Below, piece after piece: positions 22,922-63,670 of a stretch of DNA of 64,000 nucleotides (the first letter of the stretch is position 1; each line of letters opens with the position of its first letter). The position numbers and the translations under genes are program-made. Source of the DNA: Thermoanaerobaculia bacterium (GTDB lineage: Bacteria > Acidobacteriota > Thermoanaerobaculia > UBA5066); contig CAWGCY010000006.1 in assembly GCA_963821225.1 (NCBI GenBank), positions 275,217 to 339,216 of the forward strand. Direction: 5' to 3'. The notes below the pieces were generated by a model. The model was not told the DNA's origin and did no database searches. It saw only the letters and a program-made list of their open reading frames with translations.

Positions 22922-22939
22922 GTTGTTCTCGCTCCGCTT

Positions 22940-24736: not shown

Positions 24737-25759
<1,023 letters not shown>

Positions 25760-26941: not shown

Positions 26942-26953
26942 AGCGTTCTCCTT

Positions 26954-28142: not shown

Positions 28143-28182
28143 CTAAGACACATCCGTCTTAGTGGTTCGACCATTGGACCAA
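28143..28182. promoter_or_regulatory. Operator-like region upstream of OFOR operon 2: hairpin CTAAGAC-acatcc-GTCTTAG followed by AGTGGTTCGACCATTGGaCCAAATG (homologous to 12875-12898 in reverse orientation)
   Basis: Reverse complement CATTTGGTCCAATGGTCGAACCACTA aligns with CACTGGACCAGTGGTCGAACCACTT from cluster 1. The 14-bp core matches at 13 of 14 positions. Confidence 0.4.
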
Positions 28183-28262
28183 ATGTAGAGCGTCCGGCCG
28201 CTCGGAGATATGACGCGAATGAATCAGTTAGCGGGCGACCGAAAGGCTGGCGGCGCCGCTCG

Positions 28263-29033: not shown

Positions 29034-29052
29034 TCGCTTCAGTCTAGGATCC

Positions 29053-29094
29053 AGCCGCTCACAAGAAATGAGGCGAATGTATCAGTGAGCGGCT
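29053..29094 (-). terminator. Stem-loop AGCCGCTCAC-(22 nt)-GTGAGCGGCT 6 nt downstream of the CDC48-like gene stop
   Basis: Perfect 10-bp inverted repeat. There is no U-tract, which is common in high-GC genomes. Confidence 0.3.
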
Positions 29095-29099
29095 AGGCT

Positions 29100-31244: not shown

Positions 31245-31559
31245 GGGCCCTGGTCCGCTACCGACCGGCGCTCGGTGGGCCGGGCTGGCCGCCGGGAATG
31301 ACGGGCCGGAAGGGGTACGGACGGACGAAAACCGATCTCGAATGCCGGGACGTGACGTCAGGACAGACCACGATCTTTAATTCTACCAGTTCCCGAACGT
31401 CCGAACACCGTTGGACGGCGCCTCAATGGAGCGCCTTGTAGAGCATGTAACCCGCCAGAGCGAGCATGGTGCGCGCGAACGCGCGTCTCAGAGCCTTCAC
31501 CGGCGAGCGATGCGGGTGCTAGGCTGCGGCCGCGGGCTGCCGCGGAGGGCCGTGCACGG

Positions 31560-45756: not shown

Positions 45757-45768
45757 GAGGCAGAAGAG

Positions 45769-47112: not shown

Positions 47113-47113
47113 G

Positions 47114-47530
47114 ATGGCCACCGAGTCTGGCGTCATCAAACAGGGCCTGGTGCTCACGTGCGCCAAGTGCTCCACGAAGAACTTCCTCGACCCGTATCCG
47201 TTCTGGAACTTCAGCGGCAATACGAAGTGCGCCGGTTGCGACGCCATTTATGCCGTGACGTTCGTCAAAGGCCAGCAGACGAGCGGGCCGACGGCCGCCA
47301 CGGGGAAAGCCGATCTGCTGCCGGGCTACGCCGAGGACAAGACCGGAGCCGCCATCACCGGGGAAGGGAAGATCCGCCCGGCGCCGCAGGCGCGGCCGGA
47401 TCCTTTCACCGGGCAGCAGAAGCAGATCACGAAGAGCCTCAGGGGCAATCCGGTCAGCGGCAGCCGTCTCAAGAAGGAAGATCTCGTGGGAAGCCGGCCC
47501 AGGTTCATCGTGGACCTGCACAAGGCCTGA
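47114..47530 (+). CDS. Zn-ribbon (CxxC-x17-CxxC) protein with disordered C-terminal tail, 138 aa
   Basis: LVLTCAKCSTKNFLDPYPFWNFSGNTKCAGCDAIYAV. It starts 1 nt after the CoA-transferase stop. GGAGG RBS. Confidence 0.55.
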   Translation: MATESGVIKQGLVLTCAKCSTKNFLDPYPFWNFSGNTKCAGCDAIYAVTFVKGQQTSGPTAATGKADLLPGYAEDKTGAAITGEGKIRPAPQARPDPFTGQQKQITKSLRGNPVSGSRLKKEDLVGSRPRFIVDLHKA

Positions 47531-47546
47531 AGAAGGAGAAACAGCC

Positions 47547-47741
47547 GTGGCAGAGACTGAAAAGAAAAAACAAGAGTCGACCTACAAGTGCTGCGAACAC
47601 TTCGAAGCGGCGCTGGATCCGAACATCCTGAGGGCGTACGTCGGCTACTGCAAAGCGCGCGCGTGGCCCTTCACCGTGATGGTTCCGATCGGCGGGCTGG
47701 AGGGCGAGTGTCCGAAGCCCCCGATCAAGAAGAAGGCCTGA
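47547..47741 (+). CDS. Cys-rich microprotein, 64 aa
   Basis: MAETEKKKQESTYKCCEHFEAALDPNILRAYVGYCKARAWPFTVMVPIGGLEGECPKPPIKKKA. GTG start with an AAGGAG RBS 9 nt upstream. Confidence 0.45.
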   Translation: MAETEKKKQESTYKCCEHFEAALDPNILRAYVGYCKARAWPFTVMVPIGGLEGECPKPPIKKKA

Positions 47742-47758
47742 GACGGCCGGGAACAGGC

Positions 47759-48091
47759 ATGGCGAGCCTCCGAGAGGAGTTCGAGCAGCGGTACGGACGA
47801 CTCTGGTCCGGCGCGTCGTCGCTCGAAATCGGGGGCGTCACCTACGAGCTTGAAGAGGTGATGCACAAGATCGGCTTCGGCTTCGAGGGGCTCAAGCTCA
47901 TCGACGCCCCTCGGGTCGAAGCCGGCCGTTCCGCCATCCGTTTCTTCGACGGCGAGGTTCGGAGCATCGTGTGCCTCGAGCTGGGGGAGGACCTAACGAT
48001 TCTAGAAGAGCATCGGGTCCACATCGCCGAGTGGCTTGGGGACGCCTACTTCGAGACGGAATGGCAGGTTAACTGCCCCATGGATTTCTGA
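47759..48091 (+). CDS. Hypothetical protein, 111 aa
   Basis: MASLREEFEQRYGRLWSGASSLEIGGVTYELEEVMHKIGFGFEGLKLIDAPRVEAGRSAIRFFDGEVRSIVCLELGEDLTILEEHRVHIAEWLGDAYFETEWQVNCPMDF. The composition is protein-like. It lies in an operon context. Confidence 0.5.
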   Translation: MASLREEFEQRYGRLWSGASSLEIGGVTYELEEVMHKIGFGFEGLKLIDAPRVEAGRSAIRFFDGEVRSIVCLELGEDLTILEEHRVHIAEWLGDAYFETEWQVNCPMDF

Positions 48092-48102
48092 GAGGAGACA
48101 GC

Positions 48103-48507
48103 ATGAAAGTCAAGTTCTACTATTCCAGCAAGGACAAACCGGGCGAGCAATACCCGTGCAACATTGCGGACTGCCTGGAAAAGATCAAGGCGCTGAAGGG
48201 ATACGGAGTCGACGCCGAGGCGATCGACGTGGCCGGCGTGGCGGACGTTTTTCGCTTCTACCACTCGGCCCTGACGGGCCCGCCCGCGACCGTTCGGGCG
48301 GTCTTCGGCATGAAAGGCGCGCTCGAGGCGGACTTCGGCCGCGTGACGCCCGCCGTCCTCATCTTCGGCGACCCGAAGGATCGGTATCCCACCGACGCCT
48401 ATCCGCGGCAGGATCAGGCCCGCGGCGGCCTCGTCGGATGCGATAAGGCGCTGGGCGACCTCATCAAGACGCCGGAAACGGGGGACGTTCCGGGAGGTTG
48501 GCGATGA
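48103..48507 (+). CDS. Hypothetical protein, 134 aa, possible thioredoxin-like fold (KVKFYYSS...YPCNIADC)
   Basis: GAGAGGAGA RBS. A beta-strand followed by paired Cys 4 residues apart, then a helix. The fold assignment is speculative. Confidence 0.55.
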   Translation: MKVKFYYSSKDKPGEQYPCNIADCLEKIKALKGYGVDAEAIDVAGVADVFRFYHSALTGPPATVRAVFGMKGALEADFGRVTPAVLIFGDPKDRYPTDAYPRQDQARGGLVGCDKALGDLIKTPETGDVPGGWR

Positions 48508-48556
48508 ACGTTGTCGCGGAACGGCGGCCAGGGAGCACCCGCGAGGAGGCGCCCCG

Positions 48557-50224
48557 TTGAGTACGATTCCCGCGGACTACCTTCCGCCGAAGGAATTTCA
48601 ACCCGATCGGATCTACAAGCTCAAGGAGTTCGCGAGCTATCCGGATTCGCTGAACAGCACCGAGGAGCTGCTCGACAAGCAGATCGCGGCAGGCCGGGGC
48701 GACCGCCCCGCGATCCTGTTCGGTGACAAGGTCATCACGTACAAGCAGCTTCTAGGGGCCGCCTGCAAGATCGGAAATGCCCTCAGAAAGCTCGGCGTCG
48801 AGGAGACGGACCGGGTCATGCTCCGGTCGCCGAACGTTCCGCCCGCGCTGTTCACGAATTTCGGCGTCCTGAGGCTTGGGGCCGTGATGGTCCCGACCTC
48901 GCACATGCTCTCTCCGAACGAGATCGCGCACATCGCCAACAACGCCGAGGCGAAAGTGATCGTCGTGGCGGCCGCGTTCGCGGAGGGGGTCGTCAAGGCG
49001 CGGGCGAATCTCAAGACGACCAAGCACGTCATCGTCTTCGGCGGTAAGCCGGAGGAGCTGAAGGCGCAGGGGCTTCTCTGCTACGAGGAGCTCGTCGCGA
49101 ACGAGTCGCCGGCTCTCGATCCGGTCCGCCGTCCGCGCACGGCGGTCTCCGTCCTGCTCTACACATCGGGAACGACGGGCATGCCGAAGGGAACGGCGCA
49201 CTACATGGAAGAGGCGCTGATCGTCCCGGACACGATGGGAAAGTACGGGTGGAACGTACAGCCCGAGGACGTTCTCTGCGGCCCAGCTCCCATCTCGCTT
49301 GCCGGCGGGTACTCGACCGTGGCGACAATTCCATTCCGGTTCGGCGCCGCGGCTTCCCTGATCGCGAAGTTCACTCCCGAGGGGCTCTTCGAGCAGATCC
49401 AGAGCCACAAGGTGACGATCCTGAGTGCTCTCCCCACGGCCTACCGGAAGATGCTCGAGTTCGCGGGCACGGACAAGAAGTTCGATCTGTCGAGCCTTCG
49501 CGTGCTGACAGGGGGCGGCGAATCGCTGACGGCCAAGACGTATCTGGACTGGAAGGCCCGCTTCGGCCAGGAGATCTACGAGGGCCTCGGAACGACGGAG
49601 ATGATGTACGTCTTCGTCTCCAGCGTGGTCACCCGCAAAGTGAAGCCGGGGGCGATCGGCACCGCGGTCCCCGGGTACGAAATCCAGGTCATCACGGAAG
49701 AAGGCAAGGTCGCGAAACCGGGAGAGCTGGGAAGGCTCTACGCTCGCGGCCCCACGGGGACCCTCTATTGGCGTCCCCTCGAGGAGGGTGGAAATCTCCT
49801 CGAGAAACAGAAATCGCTCATCCGCGAAGGGTGGGTGCTGGTCGGCGACTTCTGCACGATGGACGAGGAGGGGTACCTCAGCTTCGTCTCCCGCCAGGAG
49901 GATCTGATCAAGAGCTCCGGCTACCGCATCGGTCCTGAGGAAATCGAAGACGCGCTTCTCAAGCATCCCGCCGTGGCCGACGCGGGCGTGATCGGCATCC
50001 CGGACCCCGTCCGGGGACAGAACGTCAAGGCCGCCGTCATCCTGAAACCCGGGATCACGCCGAGCGAGGAGCTGAAGAAGCAGCTCATCGACAGCTGCCG
50101 GGATCACGTCGCGATTTACAAGCTGCCGCGGATCGTGGAGTTCGTCACGGAGCTTCCGCGCACGCTGCAGGGGAAACTCCTGCGGCGGGTTCTGCGGGAC
50201 AAGGAGCCGGCGCCCACGAAGTAG
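48557..50224 (+). CDS. AMP-forming acyl/aryl-CoA ligase (benzoate/4-hydroxybenzoate-CoA ligase-like)
   Basis: 555 aa. LLYTSGTTGMPKGTAHY is the AMP-binding motif. YGTTE is approximated by EGLGTTEMMYVF. Also present are GWVLVGDFCTMDEEGYLSFVSRQEDLIKSSGYRIGPEEIE and the conserved C-terminal K (PRTLQGKLLR). TTG start with a GAGGAGG RBS. Confidence 0.85.
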   Translation: MSTIPADYLPPKEFQPDRIYKLKEFASYPDSLNSTEELLDKQIAAGRGDRPAILFGDKVITYKQLLGAACKIGNALRKLGVEETDRVMLRSPNVPPALFTNFGVLRLGAVMVPTSHMLSPNEIAHIANNAEAKVIVVAAAFAEGVVKARANLKTTKHVIVFGGKPEELKAQGLLCYEELVANESPALDPVRRPRTAVSVLLYTSGTTGMPKGTAHYMEEALIVPDTMGKYGWNVQPEDVLCGPAPISLAGGYSTVATIPFRFGAAASLIAKFTPEGLFEQIQSHKVTILSALPTAYRKMLEFAGTDKKFDLSSLRVLTGGGESLTAKTYLDWKARFGQEIYEGLGTTEMMYVFVSSVVTRKVKPGAIGTAVPGYEIQVITEEGKVAKPGELGRLYARGPTGTLYWRPLEEGGNLLEKQKSLIREGWVLVGDFCTMDEEGYLSFVSRQEDLIKSSGYRIGPEEIEDALLKHPAVADAGVIGIPDPVRGQNVKAAVILKPGITPSEELKKQLIDSCRDHVAIYKLPRIVEFVTELPRTLQGKLLRRVLRDKEPAPTK

Positions 50225-50286
50225 AACCGACTTCACGTCACGTCGCGCGCGCGGGGCGGCGGAGATCTGAACTAACATTCCGCGCC

Positions 50287-51144
50287 ATGAGTCCGATGGT
50301 CTTGCAGGCCGTCGCATCCGGCCTCGTGCTCGGTCTGGTCTATGCCGGAATCGGGGCCGGCTTTTCGCTCATCATGGCCACCGGACGCCTGATGAATCTC
50401 GCCCACGGCGAGTTCGTTCTCGTCGGGGGCTACATCCTCTTCGTTCTGTGCCAAGGGATCGGCTGGCCGTGGCCGGCGGCCCTCGCGCTGACGCTTCTCG
50501 GAGGGGCGCTCCTCGGAGCCGCCCTGCCCCCTCTCGTCCGCCGTCTGCCGCGCCGCGAGTCGGACGGGCTGGCATTGACGCTTGGCGTCGGCTTCGTGCT
50601 GCAGAGCCTTCTCCTGCAAGGGGCGAGTGCGACGTATCGCGTGATTCCCGGCGGGGCCTGGCCGGAGACGATGGCATTCGGGCCGGTCACTCTCAGTCGG
50701 ATCACGCTGGCAGCGGCCGGCGCGGCGGCTGCGGCCCTCGTCGGCCTCGACCTCTGGCTCCACGTTTCCTGGACGGGTACAGGGCTGAGGGCGGTCAGCC
50801 AGTCCCGGCCCGCCGCGGCCAGTCTCGGGATCTCTCCTGCCCGGATGGAATGGGTCGCCTTCCTCACCGGGGGAGCGATCGCGGCCGGCGCCGGGGGACT
50901 CGTGCTCCTGACCCGCTTTCTCACTCCGGCAGAAGGCCCGGCCTGGACGCTCGTGGCGCTCGCCGTCGTCTTCCTTGGAGGGCGACCCCGGGCGGGAACC
51001 CTCGTCGCGGCGGGAGTCGCGCTTGGAATCCTCGAATCTCTCGCAACCGTGCTCGTGGGAGGCGGCTGGCGCGAAATCGTCGCGAGCGCTTGCGTCCTCC
51101 TTTGGCTTCTCGTCCCCGGGAGGACGGAGCTCGCCGATGCATGA
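50287..51144 (+). CDS. Branched-chain amino acid-type ABC transporter permease (LivH-like)
   Basis: 285 aa with about 8 TM helices. The LivH/LivM family signature around GGALLGAALPPLVRRL...LTLGVGFVLQSL. Confidence 0.8.
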   Translation: MSPMVLQAVASGLVLGLVYAGIGAGFSLIMATGRLMNLAHGEFVLVGGYILFVLCQGIGWPWPAALALTLLGGALLGAALPPLVRRLPRRESDGLALTLGVGFVLQSLLLQGASATYRVIPGGAWPETMAFGPVTLSRITLAAAGAAAAALVGLDLWLHVSWTGTGLRAVSQSRPAAASLGISPARMEWVAFLTGGAIAAGAGGLVLLTRFLTPAEGPAWTLVALAVVFLGGRPRAGTLVAAGVALGILESLATVLVGGGWREIVASACVLLWLLVPGRTELADA

Positions 51145-52756
51145 GGGGAGGCCGTTCTTTCTCGCGTGGGCGGTCGTTCTGGGAGCCAGCGGGATCGCCA
51201 TCGCGACCCTGGGCCGATACGGCGTGAACGTCGTGGCCTTCGGGCTTCTCTACGCCGCCCTCGCGACGAGCTGGAGCTTCATGCGGGCCACCGGGCTCTT
51301 TTCCTTCGGGCAGGCGGCGTTTTTCGGGGTGGGGGCGCTGACTCAAGCCTGGCTCGTCGCGGTCGGACGGACCTCTCCGTGGCTGGCCCTCTCCGCGAGC
51401 GCGGCGGCAGGCGCTCTGGCTGCCGTTCCGTTGATCCCCGGCCTCCGCCTTTCTCCACCGGGCTTCGGCCTTGCAACTCTCGCCTACGCGATCCTTTTGA
51501 GAGGCCTGGCCGGGAACGTGCCGGACTTCGGAATGGAGGGATTCCTTCTCCCCACGACGCCGGGCTTCGACGGGCCGGCCGCCCCGGTCGTGGGGACGCT
51601 GGCTGTGCTCGTCCTCGTCAGCGGCCTCGGTTACGAAGTTTTTCTCGGCCGGCCAGGCGGCCGCGCCGCCGCCGCCCTTCGCCAGTCACCCGAGACGACG
51701 CTCAGCCTCGGCATCGACCCCGTCTCGGCGCGATGGCGCCCGTTGACGTTGAGCGCGGCGACGACCGCGATGGCGGGCGCTCTTTACGCCCACCTCGTCG
51801 GGAGCGTCGAGACGACCGTCGTTTTCTCATCGACCTTCTCCGTCGTGCCGCTGGTACTGGGAATGCTCGGAGGCGCCCTCAGCCCGCTTGGCGGGCTGGT
51901 CGGGACGCTCGCTCTCTACCCGGTCGACGAGCTCTTCTTCAGGCCTGCTCTTCCCCTCGCGCACACGCTGGCCTATGGCCTCGCCCTGTGCGGGTTGCTC
52001 CTCTTCAAACCGGAAGGACTCCTCGGAGCCCGGACGCCACGGATTCCCGCCTCCGCCGCTCTGCGGCGGATCCCGCATGGACCCTGTAGCCTGGCCGTTC
52101 GCGACCTGACCGTGCGCCGCAATGGGACTCCGGTACTCCAGGACGTCAGTTTCGCGATCGAGCCCGGGCAGATTCTCAGGGTTCTCGGCCCCAACGGCGC
52201 TGGGAAAACGTCGCTTCTCCTGGCGATTGCGGGAAGGATTCCTGTCGCACGAGGAGCGATCCTTCTGGGCGGTACGCCGTCACCGCGTGGCCCGGCCGCG
52301 CGGGTCCGGCGCGGCGTGGGGCGGACGTTTCAGGCGCCCCGGCCGTTCCCGGAGTGGACCGTACGAGAGAACGTCGCGCTCGCTTCGGAACGCGGGAACG
52401 CCTCGGGCGAAGTGGAGGAACTCCTCCGGGAACTCGACCTTTCCGCACTTTCAGGTCGCCCGGCCGGGCAGCTGAGCGTGGGGGAGGGGAAACGCCTGGA
52501 CCTCGCGCGGGTGCTCGCCCTCGAACCCGCGCTCCTGCTGCTCGACGAGCCCCTCGCCGGGCTCAGCCCGGCAGCCGCCGAGCGCGTGTCCGGCGCCATC
52601 GAGCGGAAGCGCCGCGAGGGCACAGCCGTCGTCTGGGTCGAGCATGGCCCGGCCGCCGGCGATCTGACCAACCAGCTTCTCGTCCTCGACGGCGGACAGG
52701 TTCGTTTCCTCGGGTCGCCCGGCGACTGGGAGGCGGCGCGCAAGGCGCAATCGTGA
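51137..52756 (+). CDS. Fused LivM-like permease + LivG-like ABC ATPase
   Basis: The N-terminal ~330 aa form a polytopic permease. They run without a stop into LAVRDLTVRRNGTPVLQDVSFAIEPGQILRVLGPNGAGKTSLLLAIAG (Walker A), LSVGEGKRLDLARVL (signature) and LLLLDEPLAGL (Walker B). The start overlaps the livH stop by 8 nt. Confidence 0.75.
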   Translation: MHEGRPFFLAWAVVLGASGIAIATLGRYGVNVVAFGLLYAALATSWSFMRATGLFSFGQAAFFGVGALTQAWLVAVGRTSPWLALSASAAAGALAAVPLIPGLRLSPPGFGLATLAYAILLRGLAGNVPDFGMEGFLLPTTPGFDGPAAPVVGTLAVLVLVSGLGYEVFLGRPGGRAAAALRQSPETTLSLGIDPVSARWRPLTLSAATTAMAGALYAHLVGSVETTVVFSSTFSVVPLVLGMLGGALSPLGGLVGTLALYPVDELFFRPALPLAHTLAYGLALCGLLLFKPEGLLGARTPRIPASAALRRIPHGPCSLAVRDLTVRRNGTPVLQDVSFAIEPGQILRVLGPNGAGKTSLLLAIAGRIPVARGAILLGGTPSPRGPAARVRRGVGRTFQAPRPFPEWTVRENVALASERGNASGEVEELLRELDLSALSGRPAGQLSVGEGKRLDLARVLALEPALLLLDEPLAGLSPAAAERVSGAIERKRREGTAVVWVEHGPAAGDLTNQLLVLDGGQVRFLGSPGDWEAARKAQS

Positions 52757-53457
52757 CGGCGGACCTCGTCGCACGCGAGCTCACGGGCGGCTATCCCGGT
52801 GCGATCGTCTTCTCGGGGGCGAGCTTGTCCGTGAAATCGGGGGAGATCCTGGTCGTTTTGGGCGCCAACGGCTCGGGGAAATCCGCGCTGCTCGAGACTC
52901 TGCAGGGCCTTCTGGTGCACCGTGGCGGTGAGGTCCTTCTCGATGGCGAGAGCGTCCAGGACCTCGCGCCGGAAGCCCGCGCGGTACGCGGGATGAGCCT
53001 CGTCTCCGACCGGCGACGGCTCTTCGGGAATATGACGGTCGACGAGCATCTCCGGGTCGGCGCGTTTCGCGCTGCAGCTCGGCTCGGCTGGCGCCGTCGC
53101 GCGCTCGAGGTTCGCGGCCTCTTCACGGGCTTGACGCTGCATCGCGGCGCGCGACCGGCGGGCTTGAGCGGCGGCCTCCAGCAGCAGTTGGCGCTCGCGA
53201 GGTTTGGGATGTCCTCCCCGCGAGTCTGGCTGCTGGACGATCCTCTTCAGGGGCTCGATGAGGAGACGACCGGAGGTGTCCTCGACTGGATCCAGACGGC
53301 AGCGAGTGCCGGCGCAGCCGTGATCCTGACGGGACAGCACATCCGCGCCCTTCTCGGTGTTGCGACGAAGGCGATGTTCCTCGAAGGGGGCTCCCTCTCG
53401 GCGCTCTCCGTCGGCGCCGAAGGCCTTGAGGATCCGCGCGTGCGCGGGCTGCTCTGA
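52753..53457 (+). CDS. ABC transporter ATP-binding protein (LivF-like)
   Basis: The GTG start overlaps the upstream stop (GTGA). GANGSGKSALLETL is Walker A. LSGGLQQQLALARF is the signature. VWLLDDPLQGLD is Walker B. Confidence 0.8.
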   Translation: MTADLVARELTGGYPGAIVFSGASLSVKSGEILVVLGANGSGKSALLETLQGLLVHRGGEVLLDGESVQDLAPEARAVRGMSLVSDRRRLFGNMTVDEHLRVGAFRAAARLGWRRRALEVRGLFTGLTLHRGARPAGLSGGLQQQLALARFGMSSPRVWLLDDPLQGLDEETTGGVLDWIQTAASAGAAVILTGQHIRALLGVATKAMFLEGGSLSALSVGAEGLEDPRVRGLL

Positions 53458-53506
53458 GAGGGCCGCCCGCGGATGCGCGCCCGAACGCATGAAAGGGTTC
53501 CGCCGC

Positions 53507-53998
53507 CTACGGAACCTGATATTCTCCCTCGATCTGTTCCGTGACGCTGCCGTCGGCGTTAATCGTGCCCTTGTAAGTGCCCCTTCCTTTCAGACCTTTC
53601 AACTTCCCGGTGCCCGCCGTGAAGGTCCATGAACCCTGGGCGCTCTGAAGGACTCCGTCCTTCGATTTCGCGGATCCATGAAAACTCGTGGCGAAGGTGT
53701 CTCCGTTGACCATCGTTCCCGCGTGGAACCCATGGTTCGCCACATTCTCGCCGGTCACCTCGGCAAAGGCGGTGCTGACGCCGTCCTTCGTCAGCACGCC
53801 AGCCATCTCGATCGGCTTGCTCCAGGTGCACTGAGCTTTCTCGATGGCGAAGACGTGGTTGGGTTTGTCGGTGAGAGGAATGTTGTAGGCCGGGTCCGGC
53901 TTGCCACACTTCAAGGTGCCGGAGATCTTCGTCTGCGCGGCCGCCGGCGCGGCGAGTGTTGCGGCGAACAGGAACACCAGAAGACGCTTGTCGCTCAT
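53507..53998 (-). CDS. Secreted hypothetical protein, 163 aa
   Basis: Signal peptide MSDKRLLVFLFAATLAAPAAAQ, followed by a Gly/Thr/Lys-rich beta-type sequence. Confidence 0.6.
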   Translation of the reverse strand: MSDKRLLVFLFAATLAAPAAAQTKISGTLKCGKPDPAYNIPLTDKPNHVFAIEKAQCTWSKPIEMAGVLTKDGVSTAFAEVTGENVANHGFHAGTMVNGDTFATSFHGSAKSKDGVLQSAQGSWTFTAGTGKLKGLKGRGTYKGTINADGSVTEQIEGEYQVP

Positions 53999-54165
53999 GA
54001 ATCCTTCCTTCCTCGGCTTCTACCGACGTCGCTTTCCTTGAAACAGACCACGTGGGCCGGTTGTCGGTGGGGAGTCTCCGTCTGCTGCCGGGGCTCGTCA
54101 AGGGCAAGAGGGGGCCGATCAACGACCGCCGCGGCCGAAAGCCGTGTCGTATAGTCCCCGCCGCC

Positions 54166-54576
54166 ATGAGCGAACCCGAAGTGAACTCCACCGCGTCCGC
54201 ACACTTCATCGTGGCGCCGTCCGATCTCGCGAGCGCCCTCAACCTCGAGCCCGAGGACGCGTTCCCGCCGGTGTTCGCGACGTCCCGCATGGTGGCCCTG
54301 ATGGAGCTCGCGGCCGCCCGCCTTCTCCGTCCCCATCTTCGGGCGGGCGAGCTCTCCGTCGGAGTCACCCTCGACGTCGTCCATACGGCCGCCACCCCTC
54401 CCGGCGCCACCGTCTCGGCCACGGCGAAATTCCTCGGGCGCGAGGGGAAGCTCTTCGTCTTCGAGGTCCTCGCCAACGACGACGCGGGCGAGATCGGCCG
54501 CTGCACGCACAAGCGGGCGGTCGTCACGACCGAGAGGCTCGTCGCGGGCGCGGCTCGCCGTGGAGAAAAGGCCTGA
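54166..54576 (+). CDS. Hotdog-fold acyl-CoA thioesterase (FlK/PaaI-like)
   Basis: 136 aa. FATSRMVALMELAAARLL...VGVTLDVVHTAATPPGATVSATAKFLGREGKLFVFEVLANDDAGEIGRCTHKRAVV. Confidence 0.75.
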   Translation: MSEPEVNSTASAHFIVAPSDLASALNLEPEDAFPPVFATSRMVALMELAAARLLRPHLRAGELSVGVTLDVVHTAATPPGATVSATAKFLGREGKLFVFEVLANDDAGEIGRCTHKRAVVTTERLVAGAARRGEKA

Positions 54577-55357
54577 CGCCTCGTTGACGAGCCTCGAGAT
54601 CCTCGGGCGGCGCCTCGAATACCGCTGGATAGGGCCGCGTCCCGGCGACGCGCCGTCGATCGTGTTCCTGCACGAGGGCCTCGGTTGTGTGGGAACGTGG
54701 CGGGAGTTCCCCGAGCGCCTGGCGTCCGCGACCGGCTGCGGCGCTCTCGTTTACAGCCGGATGGGCTACGGCGGGTCCGATCCCCTGATCGGAAAGCGGC
54801 CGGTCCGTTACATGCACGACGAAGCGCTGGGGGCGCTCCCGGCGGTCCTCGAGCACCTCAAGCTCGAGAATGTCGTCCTCTTCGGGCACAGCGACGGCGC
54901 GTCGATCGCGCTCATCCACGCAGGCGCCCAGGGGGGCTCCGTCCGCGGGCTGATCGTCGAGGCGCCGCACGTCTTCGTGGAGTCCATCAGTATCGAGGGG
55001 ATCCGGCGGACCACGGCGGATTACGAGACGACGCGCCTGAAAGAACGCCTCGCCCGATATCACGGCAGCAACACCGATTCGATGTTCCGGGGGTGGTCCG
55101 ACGTTTGGCTCAGCCCCGAGTTCCTGGAGTGGAACATCGAGGAGTACCTGCCGGCGATCAAGTGCCCCGTGCTCGTCGTCCAGGGTGAAGACGACCGGTA
55201 CGGCACTCTCAAGCAGGTCGACGCCGTGGTGGCGCAGGCCGGGGGTTCGGTCGAATCACTGATCCTTCCCCGTTGCGGCCACTCCCCGCACTCGGAAAGG
55301 CCGGACGAGGTACTCAAAGCTGCGACCCGGTTCATCAAGAACGCAATCGACATCTAG
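54560..55357 (+). CDS. Alpha/beta hydrolase (GHSDG nucleophile elbow)
   Basis: SIVFLHEGLGCVGTWREF...VVLFGHSDGASIALIHA...GHSPH. The listed GTG overlaps the thioesterase end by 17 nt. A TTG at 54584 is an alternative start. Confidence 0.75.
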   Translation: MEKRPDASLTSLEILGRRLEYRWIGPRPGDAPSIVFLHEGLGCVGTWREFPERLASATGCGALVYSRMGYGGSDPLIGKRPVRYMHDEALGALPAVLEHLKLENVVLFGHSDGASIALIHAGAQGGSVRGLIVEAPHVFVESISIEGIRRTTADYETTRLKERLARYHGSNTDSMFRGWSDVWLSPEFLEWNIEEYLPAIKCPVLVVQGEDDRYGTLKQVDAVVAQAGGSVESLILPRCGHSPHSERPDEVLKAATRFIKNAIDI

Positions 55358-57264: not shown

Positions 57265-59295
57265 CTACAAAGCATCTCGAGCGGACAGGACGATCCTGCT
57301 GTCCACGACCGTCAGACCCTTTTCGTGCACGATGACCGGATTCAGGTCCATCTCGTCGATCTCGGGATGTCGCGTCACGAGGCCGGAGACCTGAACGAGC
57401 AGCCGGCGGAGCGCCGCGACGTCGGCAGGCTTTCGTCCGCGCACACCCTCGAGCAGCTTCGCTCCCCGGGTTTCTCCGATCATCTCCGAGGCGTCCTTCT
57501 CGGAGAGGGGAACGATCCGGAAGGCGACGTCGCGGAAGACCTCGACGAGGGTGCCGCCGATTCCGAACATCACGGCATGGCCGAACTGGAGGTCGCGCGT
57601 CACGCCTACAATGATCTCGAGTCCGGGCGCAGCCATCGCGCTCACGAGCACGCCGGCGGATCGCGCCCCGACCCGTCGCACGACGCCCTCGAGGTCGTGA
57701 AAGGCCTTTCGGACTCCCGCCTCGTCTTTCACGTTCAGAAGGACACCTCCAACGTCGCTCTTGTGCGTCACGTCCGGAGAATTCATCTTGACGGCGACGG
57801 GATAGCCGATTGCGCGGGCGGCGGCGACAGCCTCGTCCTCGCTAACCGCCTGCCGTGAAGGCACGACACCCATCCCCTCTCGGGCGAGAAATGCCATGGA
57901 ATCGGCAGGGGTGAGCGACTTCCCCGTTCCTGGCGGAGCCGCGGGAGCGGAAGGCTGCTCGGGTTCCTGCGGGAAGCGATCCCGGGCGAAGCGGACATGG
58001 CAGGAATAGGCTTTGACGGCTCGGTCCGGCGTGGGAAAGACGGCGATCCCCTTCTCGTGAAGGAGTAACCGCTCGGCGCGCTCGACGTCAGCGCCGCCGA
58101 GATACGCCACGAGGTCGGGCTGTCCCGGCTCCAGGGCGTTCGAGGCGCCCGGGATCGGGTCCCCGAAGATCGTCAGGACGACGTCGTAGTGATTCCGCGC
58201 CTTCGCGATGACTTTGCGGAAGCACTCCGCATCGCCGTCGCCCGTGAGGTCGAGCGGGTTTCCGACGATGAAGTGGGAGGGCAGAAACTCCCGCAGCTGC
58301 GCTGCAAGGGGAGAGGGCAGCTGGCTGATCCGGAACCCGTTGTCCGCCGCGACGTCCGTGGCGATGATCGCGGATCCCCCGGAGCTCGTGACGATGAGCA
58401 TCCGGGGTCCGGCGGGAGCCGGCACGTAGGCCAGAGCTTTGGAGAAGTCGTAGAGCTCCTCGAGGGACGTCGCGCGGTGGATGCCGAATTGCCGGAAGAC
58501 GGCGTCGAAGATCTCATCCTTTCCGGCGAGCGAGCGGGTGTGCGATTCGGCGGCCTTACGCCCCTGCTCGGTCCTTCCTGACTTGAAGACCACGATGGGC
58601 TTCCGGCATGCCCGGACGGCGGACAGGAAGCGCGGAGCGTCCTTCACGCCTTCGATGTACAGCGTGATCACTTTCGTGTTCGGATCAGCGCCGAAGAACT
58701 CGATCAGGTCGGCCTCGTCGACGTCGATTCTGTTCCCCATGCTCACGAACGCCGAGAAGCCGAGTCTCTCCTCGGCAGCCCAGTCGATCAGGGCCGCCCC
58801 GACGGTCCCGCTCTGCGAGGCGATGGCCATGGCGCCCTTTCGGGTGATCAGCGGCCACGACGCGCAGAGGCCGTGGTGCGGATAGTTCACGCCCTGACAG
58901 TTCGGCCCGACCACGCGGATTCCGCACCGAGCTGCGTTCTGCTTGACCTCCTCCTGCAGGCGGGCGCCTTCCGACCCCGATTCGGCGAAGCCTCCTGTGA
59001 TCACGATGGCCGCCCGAACCTTCCGCTCGCCGAGCTGGAGGATGGTTCCGGGGACGGATGCCGCCGGAACGATGACGACGGCCAGATCGGTGCCGGACGG
59101 GATGTCGTTCACCGATTTGACGGACGGGACTCCGAGGATCGTCTCTCCCTTGGGATTCACGGGGATGACCGGACCGCCGAAGCCCGCGTCGAGGATGTTC
59201 TTGAAGATTGTGAACCCCAGTTTGCCCGGCTTTGCGGAGGCGCCGATGACCGCCATGGCATTGGGGCGAAAAAGCGCCTGCAGGGAGTCACTCAT
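57265..59295 (-). CDS. ADP-forming acetyl-CoA synthetase (NDP-forming acyl-CoA synthetase, fused alpha/beta domains; CoA-binding + ATP-grasp)
   Basis: 676 aa. The N-terminus MAVIGASAKPGKLGFTIFKNILDAGFGGPVIPVNP is a CoA-binding Rossmann. SQSGTVGAALIDWAAE is the catalytic His-loop region. The C-terminal ATP-grasp segment reads AIGYPVAVKMNSPDVTHKSDVGGVLLNV. GAGGAG RBS. Confidence 0.85.
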   Translation of the reverse strand: MSDSLQALFRPNAMAVIGASAKPGKLGFTIFKNILDAGFGGPVIPVNPKGETILGVPSVKSVNDIPSGTDLAVVIVPAASVPGTILQLGERKVRAAIVITGGFAESGSEGARLQEEVKQNAARCGIRVVGPNCQGVNYPHHGLCASWPLITRKGAMAIASQSGTVGAALIDWAAEERLGFSAFVSMGNRIDVDEADLIEFFGADPNTKVITLYIEGVKDAPRFLSAVRACRKPIVVFKSGRTEQGRKAAESHTRSLAGKDEIFDAVFRQFGIHRATSLEELYDFSKALAYVPAPAGPRMLIVTSSGGSAIIATDVAADNGFRISQLPSPLAAQLREFLPSHFIVGNPLDLTGDGDAECFRKVIAKARNHYDVVLTIFGDPIPGASNALEPGQPDLVAYLGGADVERAERLLLHEKGIAVFPTPDRAVKAYSCHVRFARDRFPQEPEQPSAPAAPPGTGKSLTPADSMAFLAREGMGVVPSRQAVSEDEAVAAARAIGYPVAVKMNSPDVTHKSDVGGVLLNVKDEAGVRKAFHDLEGVVRRVGARSAGVLVSAMAAPGLEIIVGVTRDLQFGHAVMFGIGGTLVEVFRDVAFRIVPLSEKDASEMIGETRGAKLLEGVRGRKPADVAALRRLLVQVSGLVTRHPEIDEMDLNPVIVHEKGLTVVDSRIVLSARDAL

Positions 59296-59367
59296 GTCGC
59301 TCCTCGAGATCGTGCTCGGCGAAGTCTATCCCGGCGGGGTGGTACGAGCGGCTAGACTCGTCGTCTG

Positions 59368-61260
59368 GTGTTGAGAGACCAGAGTCGCGCGGGTGAGAGT
59401 CCCTCTCCTGTCTCGATCTCGAGGCAGGAGATCCTCCGGGACCTGGAGAAGCTGATCCGGGATGGCGCTCTCTTCGGTGCCGACCGCGATCCGTCGATCA
59501 TGGACGCCGCCGAGTTCGACCGGGCGGTCGTCAAGAAGAAGGGGAAGGGAAGCCGGTTTCTCATCAGGAAGGTTCCCCGGAAGTCGAAGCTGCTGAGGCG
59601 GTGGGCGCGCCTCTTCGAGAACGCGGTCTCGCCCTGTGCGCTCCTCGACGCGCTCTCCGCCAGGATCCACGAGTTCGAGCACCGGGAGAAACTGCTCCTC
59701 TTCAGCAGGGACCGGATCATCTATGACACGGAGATCTTCCAGGCGGAGGAGAGCGTCGGCGAGCTGACGGTCAGTTTCGCATCCCTGCGGGACCCGGCCG
59801 CCGGGTTGCGCGGTTACTTTTCGGGCGAAAGGCTGCGGATCGTCTACATCGAGCACATCCACCTGACGGCGCAGAAGTCGGGATACGCCTCGGCTCTCTT
59901 CCGGCACTACGAGCGGCTTTTTCACGACCTCGGGTTCAACCAGTTCCGGCTCAGCGCCGCCCTCTCCGTCGGCAGGTATTACTGGGCCCAGGAGGGATTC
60001 GATTTCTCGGACAAATCGGAGGCCGGCAGGAGGAAGGCGGAGCTGAGAGCTCTCGTGAAGGAAAGGGACCTTCCCGTCCGGGAGGTTGAGATCGGACGTC
60101 TCAACCACGCCTACGATTTCGCCCGCTTCAGGAGAGAGCTAAAGATTCCCGCCTACCGCGACGCGGAAGGCGCTTACTCGTCGAAGGCCGACGCCCGCTT
60201 TAGCGAGGAAGTCTCCCTGCCGCTCGGGAAGGCGTTTCTTCTCTGCTCGGCGCCCTGGGAGGGGTACAAGACGATTTACACGAACACTCCGCGGATAACC
60301 GGCTTCGTGACCTCCAGGGATTATCTCTCGCACCGAACGCGCAGGGGCCACGTCGAGAGCCCCGGGCGGCTCCGCACGCTCCTCAAGGCGATCGACAAGC
60401 AGCGCCCGAGAAGGAGCCTCGTCGAGCTTTCGCCATACGTTCCCGACCTCGAGTTCCTCCAGGGGATCCACTCGGCGGAGTACCTGGCGAAATTTCGTGA
60501 GAGTGTCCGGAGGGGCGAGAAGGTTTTCTCCACGGCGGACTGCTCGATTTCCGCAGCGAGCTTCGACGTTGCGCTCCTGGCGGCGGGCGGGGTGATGGCG
60601 GGCGTGGACGCGGTCCTGAACGGGAGGGTCGACAACGTGTTCTGCGCCGTCCGGCCTCCCGGCCATCACGCGGGACGGGATTCCGCGATGGGCTTCTGTT
60701 TCATCAACAACGTCGCGGTGGGCGCGCTCTACGCGAGGGCGGTCTACGGCGTGGAGAAAATCTTCATCCTGGACTGGGACGTCCATCACGGAAACGGAAC
60801 GCAGGAGATCTTCGAGGGCGACCCCCTGACCTACTACTGCAGCCTCCACGAGCATCCGACGTTCTGCTTTCCCGGTACGGGCCGGAGGACGGAGCGAGGG
60901 ACGGGGGCGGGCGCGGGCTTCACAATGAACCTGCCTCTGAAGCCGCACACCAGGGACGAGGAGCTGATGGAGATCTTCGAGCGAGAAGTCGTCCCGGAGA
61001 TCGAGCGCTTCGAGCCCGACCTGATCATGATCTCGGCGGGCTTCGACGCGCACGAAAGGGACCCCATCGCCGACCTCGATCTCACGGAGAAGTCCTTTGT
61101 CCACATGACACGAAGAGTCTGCGAGCTGGCGGATCGATATTGCGGGGGCCGGATCGTGTCGGTCCTGGAAGGAGGGTACGACGGTCCCGCCCTCGCCTCG
61201 TCGGCCCTCGTTCACCTGAAGATTCTTCAGGGAAGGAGTGAAGAATGTTCGTCGGAATAA
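59368..61260 (+). CDS. Fusion protein: N-terminal GNAT-like (AcuA-like) acetyltransferase domain + C-terminal histone-deacetylase-superfamily (AcuC-like) deacetylase domain
   Basis: The N-domain RIVYIEHIHLTAQKSGYASALFRHYERLFHDLGFNQFRLSAALSVGRYYWAQEGFDF has a GNAT motif-A-like segment and the YYW element seen in AcuA. The C-domain carries the HDAC hallmarks RPPGHHA, DWDVHHGNGTQ and SAGFDAHERDP. The GTG start is uncertain; an ATG at 59500 is possible. Confidence 0.75.
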   Translation: MLRDQSRAGESPSPVSISRQEILRDLEKLIRDGALFGADRDPSIMDAAEFDRAVVKKKGKGSRFLIRKVPRKSKLLRRWARLFENAVSPCALLDALSARIHEFEHREKLLLFSRDRIIYDTEIFQAEESVGELTVSFASLRDPAAGLRGYFSGERLRIVYIEHIHLTAQKSGYASALFRHYERLFHDLGFNQFRLSAALSVGRYYWAQEGFDFSDKSEAGRRKAELRALVKERDLPVREVEIGRLNHAYDFARFRRELKIPAYRDAEGAYSSKADARFSEEVSLPLGKAFLLCSAPWEGYKTIYTNTPRITGFVTSRDYLSHRTRRGHVESPGRLRTLLKAIDKQRPRRSLVELSPYVPDLEFLQGIHSAEYLAKFRESVRRGEKVFSTADCSISAASFDVALLAAGGVMAGVDAVLNGRVDNVFCAVRPPGHHAGRDSAMGFCFINNVAVGALYARAVYGVEKIFILDWDVHHGNGTQEIFEGDPLTYYCSLHEHPTFCFPGTGRRTERGTGAGAGFTMNLPLKPHTRDEELMEIFEREVVPEIERFEPDLIMISAGFDAHERDPIADLDLTEKSFVHMTRRVCELADRYCGGRIVSVLEGGYDGPALASSALVHLKILQGRSEECSSE

Positions 61261-61895
61261 GGATGACGCGGAACGTGATCACGGTCTCCCGAGGGGACAC
61301 CTTGAAGTTTGCGAGCAATCTTCTGCACGAAAACCGGATCCACCAGCTCCCGGTCGTCGAAGGCGAGGAGTTGATCGGTTTCGTGTCGGGTACCGATATA
61401 CGCAACTCGACGTTCGAGGAGACGACGGTTTCCGGGACCGGCAAGATCGTCGTGAAGAACAAGACCGTCGAGGAGATCATGACGCGCGAGGTGATCACGG
61501 TGAGCCCGTGGGACACGGTCGAGGACGCGCTCCTGATCTTCCACAAGAGGAGACTGGGCGCCGTGCCGGTCGTGGAAGGAAAGAAGCTGGTGGGGATCAT
61601 CACGAAGGCGGACGTGCTCGCGGCGTTCTGCGACACCCTCAGGATCCAAGAGCCCGGGGTGAGAATCGAGGTGCTCCTCCCTCGCGAAGCCGGCTCCCTC
61701 ATTCACCTCGTGAAGAAGCTCGGGGAACTGAAGACCGAGATCCGGAGCCTGATCCTCTCTCCATTGAGGGACGGCTTCGTTGCCTTCATCCGGATCTCGA
61801 CGATCGACGTGGCGGCGGTGAAGAATGCGCTCAAAGACGCGGGCTTCACCGTTCCGGAACTCGCGGATTTTCTCGGGGGGACCGGCGAACGATAG
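61245..61895 (+). CDS. CBS-pair + ACT-like protein (AcuB-like) copy 1
   Basis: 216 aa. Two CBS motifs (ENRIHQLPVVEGEELIGFVSGTDI and KRRLGAVPVVEGKKLVGIITKADV), then an ACT-like C-terminus. GGAAGGAG RBS. It overlaps the upstream stop. Confidence 0.75.
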   Translation: MFVGIRMTRNVITVSRGDTLKFASNLLHENRIHQLPVVEGEELIGFVSGTDIRNSTFEETTVSGTGKIVVKNKTVEEIMTREVITVSPWDTVEDALLIFHKRRLGAVPVVEGKKLVGIITKADVLAAFCDTLRIQEPGVRIEVLLPREAGSLIHLVKKLGELKTEIRSLILSPLRDGFVAFIRISTIDVAAVKNALKDAGFTVPELADFLGGTGER

Positions 61896-61913
61896 AGAGA
61901 CTCGAGGTGTTAC

Positions 61914-62543
61914 ATGTTGATTCGAGACATCATGCGGAGCCCGGCCCTGGCCATCTCCGCGGATACGACGCTCCAGGATGCCTACCGGACGATGCGGGAG
62001 CACGGCATCCGGCACTTGCCGGTGCTCGAGGGCGAAAAGCTCGTCGGGGTGGTCACGGACCGCGATCTGAGGCTGGCGACCAGCTCGCTCGCGCCCTCAC
62101 CATTCTCGCCTGACAGCCGGGTCTCCGCGGTCATGTCTCAAGCGCCGCTGACGGCGGATGCCGCCGACCCGGTCGAGGACGCCGCACGCACGATGCGGGA
62201 GCGGAAGATCGGCTGCCTCCCGGTCCTGGACGACGGGCGGTTGATCGGGATCGTCACGGGCCTCGATCTGCTGGACGCGTTGGTGCGACTGACGGGCGTG
62301 CACAAGCCCTCGGGCCGCCTGGAAGTGCGCCTTCCCGACCATCCAGGCGAGCTCGCCCGGCTCACGAGCTTCGTCAGCCACCGCGATCTGAACGTCCACT
62401 CGATCTTGACCTATCCCGATGGTCCCGACTCGATTCGGACGGTCCTGCGCATCGGCTCGATCGAGACCGGGCTGCTCGCGCAGGACCTGCGCCGAGCCGG
62501 GTTCGACGTGCTTTGGCCCCCGGAGAAGCCGTGCCCTCGGTGA
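61914..62543 (+). CDS. CBS-pair + ACT-like protein (AcuB-like) copy 2
   Basis: 209 aa. EHGIRHLPVLEGEKLVGVVTDRDL and ERKIGCLPVLDDGRLIGIVTGLDL. GAGGTG RBS. Confidence 0.75.
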   Translation: MLIRDIMRSPALAISADTTLQDAYRTMREHGIRHLPVLEGEKLVGVVTDRDLRLATSSLAPSPFSPDSRVSAVMSQAPLTADAADPVEDAARTMRERKIGCLPVLDDGRLIGIVTGLDLLDALVRLTGVHKPSGRLEVRLPDHPGELARLTSFVSHRDLNVHSILTYPDGPDSIRTVLRIGSIETGLLAQDLRRAGFDVLWPPEKPCPR

Positions 62544-63670
62544 TCTACGCTCCCGCCTACCGGACGTACTCCTTCGGCGACGAGCATCCGTTCAGCCCTG
62601 TGCGAACCGACATGGTGCTCGATCTCCTGGGTGCGCTCGGGCACCGCGTCGAGACCGTCGAACCAAAGCCGGCGACGCGGGAGGATCTCCTCGACGTGCA
62701 CCAGGATGTGTACGTCTGCCGGGTGGAGAAACTGAGCGCGGGCGCTCTGGTCGTCGACGGACAGGAATACGGGCTGGGCACACAGGACACCCCCTCGTTT
62801 CCGGGTATGGACGAGGCGGCCAGGTGGATCGTCGGGGGCACCCTGCATGGCGCGCGCCTGATCTCGGAAGGGCGAGAGAAGCGCGTCCTTCAGCTCGGAG
62901 GGGGGCTGCATCACGCGCGCGGCAGGTTTGCGTCGGGTTTCTGCATCTACAACGACCTCGCAATCGCGATCAACTCCCTCACGCGGAAGGGACTGAAGGT
63001 GGCCTATCTCGACATCGACGTCCACCACGCCGACGGCGTTCAAGAGATCCTCTACGAGGATCCACGCGTCTTGACCGTGAGCCTTCACGAGTCGGGCAAA
63101 TACCTCTTCCCGGGGACCGGCGAGATTCGCGAGCTCGGCTCAGGAGCCGCCCGTGGCCTGAAGCTGAACCTGCCGCTGGAGCCGTTCACCGAAGGCGAGA
63201 GCTACCTGGAAGTTCTCGAGAAGGTGACCCCGGCCGCCCTGCGGTACTTTCGCCCCGACGTGCTCGTGGTCCAGGCGGGAGCGGACGCGCATTTCGACGA
63301 TCCGCTCTCCGATCTCATGCTGACCACGCGCGATTACGAGGTGATCTTCAGGCGAATCCTGGCCTGGGCGGACGAGTTCACCGCGGGCCGGGTGCTGTTC
63401 ACGCTGGGAGGCGGCTACTCCTTCCGCGCGGCGCCGCGCGTGTGGGCGATCCTCTACCTCGTGATGCACGACGTCGATGTGGTGCAGGAGCTTCCGGAGT
63501 CCTGGCGAAGCAGATGGAGCCACACTTCCGAAAGCGGGCTCCCGCGCACATTGCACGATCCGAATCCGTCGCACGCCGACATTGCCAACCGCTACGAGAT
63601 TTCACACCGCAACCGGCAGGTGGCCGAGAGGCTCCTGGACCTGACGCGGCAATACTGGTTCCCCAAGTAA
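62531..63670 (+). CDS. acuC: AcuC-like class-I-type deacetylase (acetoin utilization protein AcuC/histone deacetylase family)
   Basis: VIYAPAYRTYSFGDEHPFSPVRTDMVLDLL...GGGLHHARGRFASGFCIYNDLAIAI...DIDVHHADGVQ...AGADAHFDDPLSDL. A likely GTG start at 62531 overlaps the upstream stop. The ORF track lists TTG 62513. Confidence 0.8.
   Translation: MPSVIYAPAYRTYSFGDEHPFSPVRTDMVLDLLGALGHRVETVEPKPATREDLLDVHQDVYVCRVEKLSAGALVVDGQEYGLGTQDTPSFPGMDEAARWIVGGTLHGARLISEGREKRVLQLGGGLHHARGRFASGFCIYNDLAIAINSLTRKGLKVAYLDIDVHHADGVQEILYEDPRVLTVSLHESGKYLFPGTGEIRELGSGAARGLKLNLPLEPFTEGESYLEVLEKVTPAALRYFRPDVLVVQAGADAHFDDPLSDLMLTTRDYEVIFRRILAWADEFTAGRVLFTLGGGYSFRAAPRVWAILYLVMHDVDVVQELPESWRSRWSHTSESGLPRTLHDPNPSHADIANRYEISHRNRQVAERLLDLTRQYWFPK

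Follow-up and report, generated by a model that had tools for sequence, protein, structure and literature searches.

A GNAT-fold domain fused to a class-II-type deacetylase in an AcuABC-like operon divergent to an ADP-forming acyl-CoA synthetase gene of Thermoanaerobaculia: a candidate reversible acetylation switch

The textbook case of bacterial metabolic control by acetylation is the AMP-forming acyl-CoA synthetases, which are acetylated reversibly on lysine. The ADP-forming enzymes, which are not known to be controlled in this way, share this chemistry but have another fold and conserve ATP. We analyzed a stretch of 64,000 nucleotides from a Thermoanaerobaculia bacterium (assembly GCA_963821225.1, contig CAWGCY010000006.1, positions 275,217 to 339,216 of the forward strand; hereafter, the window), in which the gene of an ADP-forming acyl-CoA synthetase (ACD) is divergent to an operon that resembles acuABC of Bacillus subtilis and that opens with the fusion of a GNAT-fold domain (the N-domain) to a Zn deacetylase. 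Our analysis lends partial support to an Acu-like switch at this locus, as proposed in a first-pass annotation of this DNA, in which a putative writer of a new family is joined to a class II eraser, the gating would be of the AcuB type, and the link to the ACD is seen in one clade.

The closest described system is the acsA-acuABC locus of Bacillus subtilis and Geobacillus, which has the same layout: a gene encoding a CoA-thioester synthetase is divergent to an operon that encodes a GNAT-fold protein, one or more CBS-CBS-ACT proteins and a Zn deacetylase. AcuB had been described in the first-pass annotation as a protein of unknown role, a statement now outdated, as two papers of 2026 show that its Bateman module binds AMP or Ap4A and that its ACT domain inhibits AcuC (PMC13121692, PMC13039410). 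A second group of related systems comprises the Pat/PatZ (type I) and PatA (type II) proteins, in which, as at our locus, a GNAT is associated with an acetyl-CoA-binding module of the NDP-forming synthetase type. The ACD-like part of Pat is fused to the GNAT, is dead and lacks the phospho-histidine (PMC8556138). Finally, the ADP-forming synthetases themselves have been solved from Ca. Korarchaeum (ACD, 4xyl) and Nitrosopumilus (8wzu). In the open-access literature searched, no post-translational control of characterized ADP-forming acyl-CoA synthetases is described, and no report of acetylation control of such enzymes was found. Nor were GNAT-deacetylase fusions found in that literature, including a survey of bacterial deacylases and the review that sets out GNAT types I-V (PMC8556138).

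The locus in the window is composed as follows, and both the gene list and the coordinates of the first-pass annotation agree with the open reading frame map and the domain scans:

57265-59295, minus strand: ACD with fused alpha and beta parts, 676 amino acids (open reading frame map and Pfam)
59296-59367, no strand: divergent control region of 72 nt, between the ATG of the ACD gene and the GTG of the fusion gene
59368-61260, plus strand: fusion protein of a GNAT-fold domain, a linker and a class-II-type Zn deacetylase, 630 amino acids (single uninterrupted open reading frame, GTG start)
61245-61895, plus strand: AcuB-like protein 1, CBS-CBS-ACT, 216 amino acids (PDB AcuB 9s4w, E 1.9e-25, residues 7-203)
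61914-62543, plus strand: AcuB homologue 2, CBS-CBS-ACT, 209 amino acids (PDB AcuB 9s4w, E 8.3e-41, full length; Pfam CBS twice and ACT)
62513-63670, plus strand: AcuC-like class-I-type Zn deacetylase, 385 amino acids from the TTG at 62513, with an alternative GTG at 62540 (Pfam Hist_deacetyl, E 8.9e-81)

The divergent arrangement was correctly read, with the two start codons separated by exactly the 72 nt of 59296-59367. The two CBS-ACT genes are AcuB homologues and the last gene is AcuC-like, also as annotated. All four plus-strand genes had been recognized; what had been missed is a second deacetylase, located at residues 328-619 of the product of the gene at 59368. Since this product carries a complete Hist_deacetyl domain of its own, the operon encodes two deacetylases and two AcuB-like proteins, which distinguishes it from acuABC. 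A further difference is its distribution, as the module is found in Acidobacteriota and in Deferrimicrobia-type metagenome-assembled genomes (MAGs), not in Bacilli.

The conservation of this arrangement was analyzed by means of a scan for the N-domain, with one genome per species, which yielded 74 loci onto which the window proteins were mapped. Neighbourhood genes were called with a GC3-based caller suited to high-GC DNA with antisense open reading frames. An ACD gene lies divergent and upstream of the N-domain gene in all 19 evaluable Acidobacteriota (Thermoanaerobaculia-type) loci, at a distance of 125 nt or less in 11 of them and of 0.5-3.2 kb in the rest, where the pair is mostly interrupted by genes for a Crp-family regulator and/or a major facilitator superfamily (MFS) transporter. 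Recurring in 19 of 19 evaluable related loci, the divergent layout is no chance juxtaposition. In one subclade the N-domain stands alone as a protein of about 310 amino acids, encoded 66-123 nt from the ACD gene, with neither a deacetylase nor an AcuB gene nearby and with otherwise varying flanks. These solo pairs are the strongest pointer to the ACD as the partner of the N-domain. In addition, a second lineage carries an ACD of 53-57% identity whose gene is convergent, right after the AcuB-like gene (L034, L038, L042, L075).

The complete five-gene layout occurs only in the subclade of the window (L005-L009, L079, L080), to which AcuB homologue 2 is also restricted. In contrast, AcuB-like gene 1 directly follows the fusion gene in every one of the 52 fused loci with enough sequence. 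The conserved core is thus the fusion gene plus one AcuB-like gene, usually without an ACD gene.

The ACD protein was examined for the features of an active synthetase. Pfam detected the domains CoA_binding_2, Succ_CoA_lig, Ligase_CoA_2 and ATP-grasp_5 and no AMP-binding domain, and the full five-domain alpha/beta set of ADP(NDP)-forming synthetases is present. The best PDB match is the Nitrosopumilus 4-hydroxybutyrate-CoA ligase (8wzu, E 8.5e-117), and the solved proteins nearest to it are the 4-hydroxybutyrate- and 3-hydroxypropionate-CoA ligases of the ADP-forming type together with the Korarchaeum ACD. With 4xyl and 8wzu it shares the domain set, the phospho-histidine loop, the SQSGT power-helix motif and the ATP-grasp histidine. 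The two catalytic histidines are encoded at:

58540-58542, minus strand: codon of His252, the swinging-loop phospho-histidine (AAESHTRSLAG), which aligns with SHTGAL of solved ADP-forming ligases
57763-57765, minus strand: codon of His511, the ATP-grasp histidine (THKSDVGGV), from alignment to solved enzymes

Judged from its domains and from both histidines, the window ACD is a true, catalytically intact ADP-forming acyl-CoA synthetase, in line with the original assignment. It differs from AcsA, which is AMP-forming and has an A10 lysine, in using the CoA-binding and ATP-grasp fold and a phospho-histidine. It should be noted that it also differs from the solved enzymes in scoring far under every NCBIfam equivalog cut-off (508 bits against a cut-off of 1200 for acetate, 477 against 1300 for 4-hydroxybutyrate and 462 against 1300 for 3-hydroxypropionate).

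The ACD also matches the acetyltransferase PatZ (9it0, E 6e-92), which lacks the phospho-histidine at the aligned position. Because the ACD keeps this residue, it reads as an enzyme and not as a Pat-type sensor domain. A 'split Pat', in which the ACD would serve as the dead regulatory part, was thus rejected on the basis of the two retained catalytic histidines. Unlike Pat, the ACD of the window is encoded by a separate gene, ends at its ATP-grasp domain and has no GNAT part, and the GNAT-fold domain next to it, which is not of the Pat family, forms one chain with a deacetylase.

We next describe this GNAT-fold domain, whose features in the window are:

59368-60282, plus strand: N-domain, residues 1-305, divergent GNAT fold (from the fold of its AlphaFold model and its P-loop; no Pfam or NCBIfam model)
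59872-59889, plus strand: predicted acetyl-CoA P-loop, Q169-K-S-G172-Y-A174, which fits the GNAT pattern R/Q-x-x-G-x-G/A

Sequence models did not detect a GNAT. Searches of Pfam at E<=10 returned only IDM1_C (E 0.23) and no GNAT model, NCBIfam gave no match, and neither a sequence search (phmmer) nor a family-profile search (hmmsearch) of the PDB returned anything relevant, so that no significant match of the N-domain to a curated GNAT sequence model was found. The AlphaFold model, on the other hand, shows the mixed beta-sheet of the GNAT fold, including its beta4-alpha3 and beta5-alpha4 motifs, and its structural matches are nearly all GNATs; the top 50 Foldseek matches are all GNAT-fold proteins or domains, with probabilities up to 1.0, among them Elp3, KKT23, GCN5, Naa50/60 and the acetyl-CoA-sensing domain of Mycobacterium tuberculosis ICL2. 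The P-loop agrees with the pattern defined for the pyrophosphate-binding loop of GNAT proteins, R/Q-x-x-G-x-G/A (PMC8556138). In an alignment of 32 family members, Q169, G172, Y173, A174 and S175 are conserved in at least 90%, as is the YYW..GF portion of a YYW..EGF segment that lies after the strand following the P-loop. Conserved polar residues surround the GNAT core (Y119, D120, E128, Y204/Y205, E209 and K288). Moreover, an exhaustive profile search ties positions 165-306 to distant proteins, and of the ten distant relatives scanned, two, P0120 and P0150, have a Pfam Acetyltransf_1 domain over the matched stretch, in register. The N-domain is thus a predicted GNAT by modelled fold and P-loop and not by any sequence model: the first-pass description of it as 'GNAT-like' holds for the fold and the loop and fails against every GNAT hidden Markov model (HMM) of Pfam and NCBIfam.

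Its further identification as the counterpart of AcuA did not survive. The N-domain and AcuA have in common a 'YYW' after beta5, which had looked suggestive, yet the alignment of the family profile with the two solved AcuA sequences by hhalign gave a probability of 0.09%, and kinship with AcuA was rejected. The putative writer of the window therefore differs from that of acuABC in belonging to an unannotated family and in being fused to its own class-II-type deacetylase. This family has about 106 close members, all derived from metagenomes or MAGs, which appear in databases as 'hypothetical protein' or, where fused, as 'histone deacetylase'. The same GNAT-deacetylase fusion is present in more than 50 species-level genomes. 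As putative roles, the family would usually represent a single-chain writer-eraser, GNAT plus class II deacetylase, under the restraint of an energy sensor of the AcuB type.

Relatives of the N-domain were also seen in other settings. Solo paralogues of about 45-48% identity occur in unrelated contexts without an ACD, deacetylase or AcuB gene (L003, L064, L065, L067, L070), those of L003 and L070 being neighboured by genes for a CopD-like membrane protein and a pyridine-nucleotide oxidoreductase. Distant relatives of its C-terminal half (approximately 165-306) are found, often in multiple copies, in giant proteins of 1,000-7,600 amino acids (including P0120, P0122, P0124, P0133, P0156 and P0204), one of which is labelled 'GNAT superfamily N-acetyltransferase'.

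The C-terminal part of the fusion protein corresponds to the following feature:

60349-61224, plus strand: fused deacetylase domain, residues 328-619, class IIb/HDAH-like (Pfam Hist_deacetyl, E 2e-93)

This domain carries the motifs GHHA (432-435), DWDVHH (469-474), GFDAH (558-562) and EGGY (601-604), and its best PDB matches are HDAC6, bacterial HDAH and bacterial deacetylases (E 1e-99 to 1e-61), with acetylpolyamine amidohydrolase (APAH) far weaker (5.5e-35). Among class II bacterial HDAC homologues are small-molecule amidohydrolases, such as the dimethoate and propanil hydrolases. The AcuC-like protein has the motifs LHHA, DIDVHH, GADAH and GGGY and finds its closest solved relatives in the single-domain class-I proteins HDAC2, HDAC8 and Rpd3; the two-domain HDAC6 heads its match list solely through a summed score. 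Both deacetylases retain the His-His dyad and the catalytic Tyr as well as the Zn ligands, which in the fused domain are D/H/D.

For the two CBS proteins, the best solved match is AcuB of G. stearothermophilus (9s4w). Both share the Bateman plus ACT architecture of the AcuB of the AcuB-AcuC complex (PMC13121692, PMC13039410) as well as equivalents of the AcuC-contact residues D89 and E92, and each is encoded by a gene that adjoins and overlaps a deacetylase gene. AcuB-like gene 1 has a strong Shine-Dalgarno sequence (GGAAGGAG) before its start and shares its first 16 nt with the end of the fusion gene. At 62540-62543, in the sequence GTGA, the stop codon of the second AcuB gene overlaps the alternative GTG of the AcuC-like gene, a 4-nt stop/start overlap of the same kind as the ATGA at the Bacillus acuB-acuC junction (PMC13039410). 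AcuB homologue 2, which also has the equivalent of the third contact residue, W206, and the product of the last gene are the true AcuB and AcuC homologues of the window; the pair that they form in this sublineage is canonical and translationally coupled. AcuB-like protein 1 differs from the described complex in that it lacks the W206 equivalent and its gene follows that of its deacetylase, which is class-II-type; for the window proteins, nucleotide binding and inhibition are predicted by homology only. We infer a one-to-one pairing, of AcuB-like protein 1 with the fused class II domain and of AcuB homologue 2 with the AcuC-like enzyme. The left edge of the window (24-548, minus strand) encodes one more CBS-pair protein, the third, which shares about 30% identity with both AcuB-like proteins.

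Taken as a whole, the locus may be an Acu-type reversible lysine-acetylation module, built from partly non-orthologous parts and dedicated in this clade to the ACD, a reading that we put forward tentatively, as somewhat short of probable. It draws its support from the intact ACD and deacetylases, the fold and P-loop of the N-domain and the AcuB homologies, as well as from the linkage in 19 of 19 loci, the solo N-domain/ACD pairs, the second, convergent gene order and the compact 72-nt control region, with its conserved -10-like hexamers, that the two divergent genes have in common. According to this model, the N-domain would use acetyl-CoA, which is the ACD's own substrate or product, to acetylate the ACD, or a complex that contains it, and so reduce ACD activity, and the fused deacetylase and the AcuC-like enzyme would strip the acetyl mark. 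Each AcuB-like protein would bind adenine nucleotides in its Bateman module and block 'its' deacetylase with its ACT domain, as in the AcuB/AcuC pair of Bacillus. The acetyl-CoA level, through the writer, and the energy charge, through the gating of the erasers, would then jointly set the flux through acid + CoA + ATP <-> acyl-CoA + ADP + Pi. The AcuB gating would also prevent futile cycling by the fused writer and eraser.

Seen from the synthetase, the dependency is one-sided. The N-domain gene is in this clade always accompanied by an ACD gene, and the ACD is often alone. Among metagenomic ACD orthologues of at least 68% identity, an N-domain gene adjoins in 22. Such asymmetry is expected if an accessory regulator acts on a target, but it sets a limit to the claim on the ACD as well.

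Several observations weigh against the tentative assignment of the module to the ACD. Of approximately 49 evaluable ACD orthologues, 10 have no N-domain gene if strict flanks are required, and 27 have none if 1.2 kb or more of upstream sequence is enough. Outside Acidobacteriota, in Deferrimicrobia and 'Deltaproteobacteria' MAGs, most core modules have no ACD gene within 8 kb; in the 32 evaluable non-Acidobacteriota loci, an ACD is found in 3 and a lactate-type MFS transporter in 20. The adjacency of ACD and Acu genes that the first-pass annotation expected across genomes thus holds for Acidobacteriota, even where the deacetylase and AcuB genes are missing, and is mostly missing elsewhere, with many ACDs unlinked. 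Acetylation of the ACD is itself a prediction from gene linkage and homology. Furthermore, an ADP-forming acetyl-CoA synthetase from haloarchaea has been reported to run in the acetate-forming direction in vivo (PMC11784441), and if the same applies to the ACD, its inhibition by a writer driven by acetyl-CoA would follow a logic that is not obvious.

Likewise, the comparison of linked and unlinked ACDs did not single out any lysine. One alignment column deserves mention:

58837-58839, minus strand: codon of ACD residue K153, the sole alignment column separating linked from unlinked ACDs

Position 153 is Lys in 31 of the 34 N-domain-linked enzymes and Arg in 18 of the 25 unlinked ones. A Lys/Arg swap is a pattern that a regulatory acetyl-lysine site might show; the split, however, mostly mirrors the phylogeny of the ACDs, and each side has its exceptions. 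In the alignment, K153 precedes the SQSGT motif by seven positions; it is no known catalytic lysine. As the pattern is clade-structured, K153 was kept as a lead and not taken as evidence for an acetylation site.

Three other explanations of the gene linkage were considered. The first is that the module is a general or otherwise-targeted acetylation switch, which acts on AMP-forming acyl-CoA ligases or on many proteins, with the ACD adjacent through a shared organic-acid/CoA-thioester regulon. The region at 44-57 kb is indeed a CoA-thioester island, and the AMP-forming ligase encoded there at 48557-50224, 7 kb upstream, ends in LPRTLQGK, which corresponds to the classical acetylation motif PxxxxGK. 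Most clade-B modules have no nearby ACD, and several substrates are known for the AcuC of Bacillus, two further points in favour of a broader switch. Nevertheless, an AMP-forming ligase gene is found within 8 kb in only some of the clade-A loci, as compared with 19 of 19 for the ACD. The solo N-domain genes, in addition, stay at 66-123 nt from the ACD gene while their other flanks change, and ACD adjacency arose in two different gene orders. We therefore consider a general or different target unlikely.

The second explanation is that the N-domain is a non-catalytic GNAT-fold sensor of acyl-CoA, which tunes the fused deacetylase in cis and, in its solo form, regulates the ACD allosterically, with no acetyl transfer. 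Such a role would remove the risk of a futile cycle that a fused writer and eraser otherwise carries, although gating by AcuB is a way around this problem. Among the Foldseek matches of the N-domain is a regulatory domain, that of M. tuberculosis ICL2, which is GNAT-like and binds acetyl-CoA, and the His-less ACD-like part of Pat sets a precedent for a CoA-sensing pseudo-enzyme domain (PMC8556138). Most structural neighbours, however, are active protein acetyltransferases (GCN5, Elp3, Naa50/60, NatD and HAT1), and the P-loop and the conserved polar core look enzymatic, which argues weakly against a sensor. On balance, a purely sensory N-domain appears quite improbable.

Finally, a purely metabolic coupling, in which the deacetylases would free acetate from N-acetylated small molecules or proteins, the ACD would re-activate it (one ATP to ADP) or the MFS transporter would move it, and the GNAT would re-use the acetyl-CoA, is in keeping with the commonest neighbours of the module (the ACD and an SfMCT-type MFS transporter, both of which handle short monocarboxylates), with the small-molecule amidohydrolases among class II homologues and with the acetate recycling after deacetylation discussed for Acs, but seems very unlikely given that the solo N-domain/ACD pairs have no deacetylase, that the fused domain is much nearer to HDAC6/HDAH-type lysine deacylases than to acetylpolyamine amidohydrolase and that the only enzyme known so far to be gated in the AcuB manner is a protein deacetylase.

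A reversible acetylation module directed at the ACD, if real, would make ADP-forming synthetases a new class of acetylation targets and would reveal an acetyltransferase family missed by present HMM libraries and labelled 'hypothetical' or 'histone deacetylase'. It would provide the first natural writer-eraser fusion, and it would extend the AcuB energy-sensor mechanism, published in 2026, from the class I AcuC of Bacilli to class II deacetylases and to Acidobacteriota and Desulfobacterota-type lineages. The more specific claim that the N-domain founds a new family of bacterial protein acetyltransferases with an active ACD as substrate, and thus the first reversible-acetylation control in the NDP-forming superfamily, is possible, if on the doubtful side. 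Free pairs of a GNAT and an active ACD could also be the kind of partnership ancestral to the Pat-type enzymes, in which a GNAT is joined to a dead ACD domain.

The 72-nt gap between the divergent genes contains one further element:

59323-59358, no strand: inverted repeat AGTCTA-N24-TAGACT, equivalent to two back-to-back TAGACT (-10-like) hexamers, inside the 72-nt gap

This repeat occurs once in the window, against 0.00 expected, and is present in one copy per locus in 24 related loci, every time within the gap between the ACD and N-domain genes. A role as an operator specific to the gene pair was considered and rejected, as the TAGACT on the ACD side, approximately 28 nt before the ACD ATG, is retained even at loci without an N-domain gene. 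We therefore interpret the repeat as a pair of -10-like boxes placed back to back. Only 9 nt separate the end of the plus-strand TAGACT from the GTG of the fusion gene, a distance that suggests a leaderless fusion-gene mRNA, and the ATG of the ACD gene is preceded by a GGAG Shine-Dalgarno sequence.

With respect to the wider gene context, outside Acidobacteriota no neighbour of the fusion/AcuB-like module is more common than the MFS transporter (L024, L025, L043, L047-L056, L059, L061, L062, L069 and others), and it exceeds the cut-off of the NCBIfam model for the SfMCT L-lactate transporter (412 vs 320 bits). In L010, L015 and L086 it stands between the ACD and the module, and the window has a homologue of 40% identity 14 kb upstream (43077-44150).

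Some of the related loci also carry type II Pat-like genes, which encode an N-terminal Acetyltransf_1 domain and an ACD-like part and lie 3-5 kb from the N-domain gene, followed by a gene for a PAS protein (L001 at 11163-13943 and L002 at 11492-14332; also L010, L015, L016, L021 and L073). The ACD-like part of the L001 protein, the only copy examined, lacks the catalytic histidine. A canonical writer of the Pat type is thus also present in these genomes.

In the window, the CoA-thioester island upstream of the ACD (44341-55357) encodes two family III CoA-transferases, the AMP-forming ligase, a Liv-type ABC transporter, a FlK-type acyl-CoA thioesterase, an alpha/beta hydrolase and three small proteins without a Pfam match. 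Farther away, at positions 18001-32000, the G+C content falls to 0.60-0.64, compared with 0.66-0.70 on either side.

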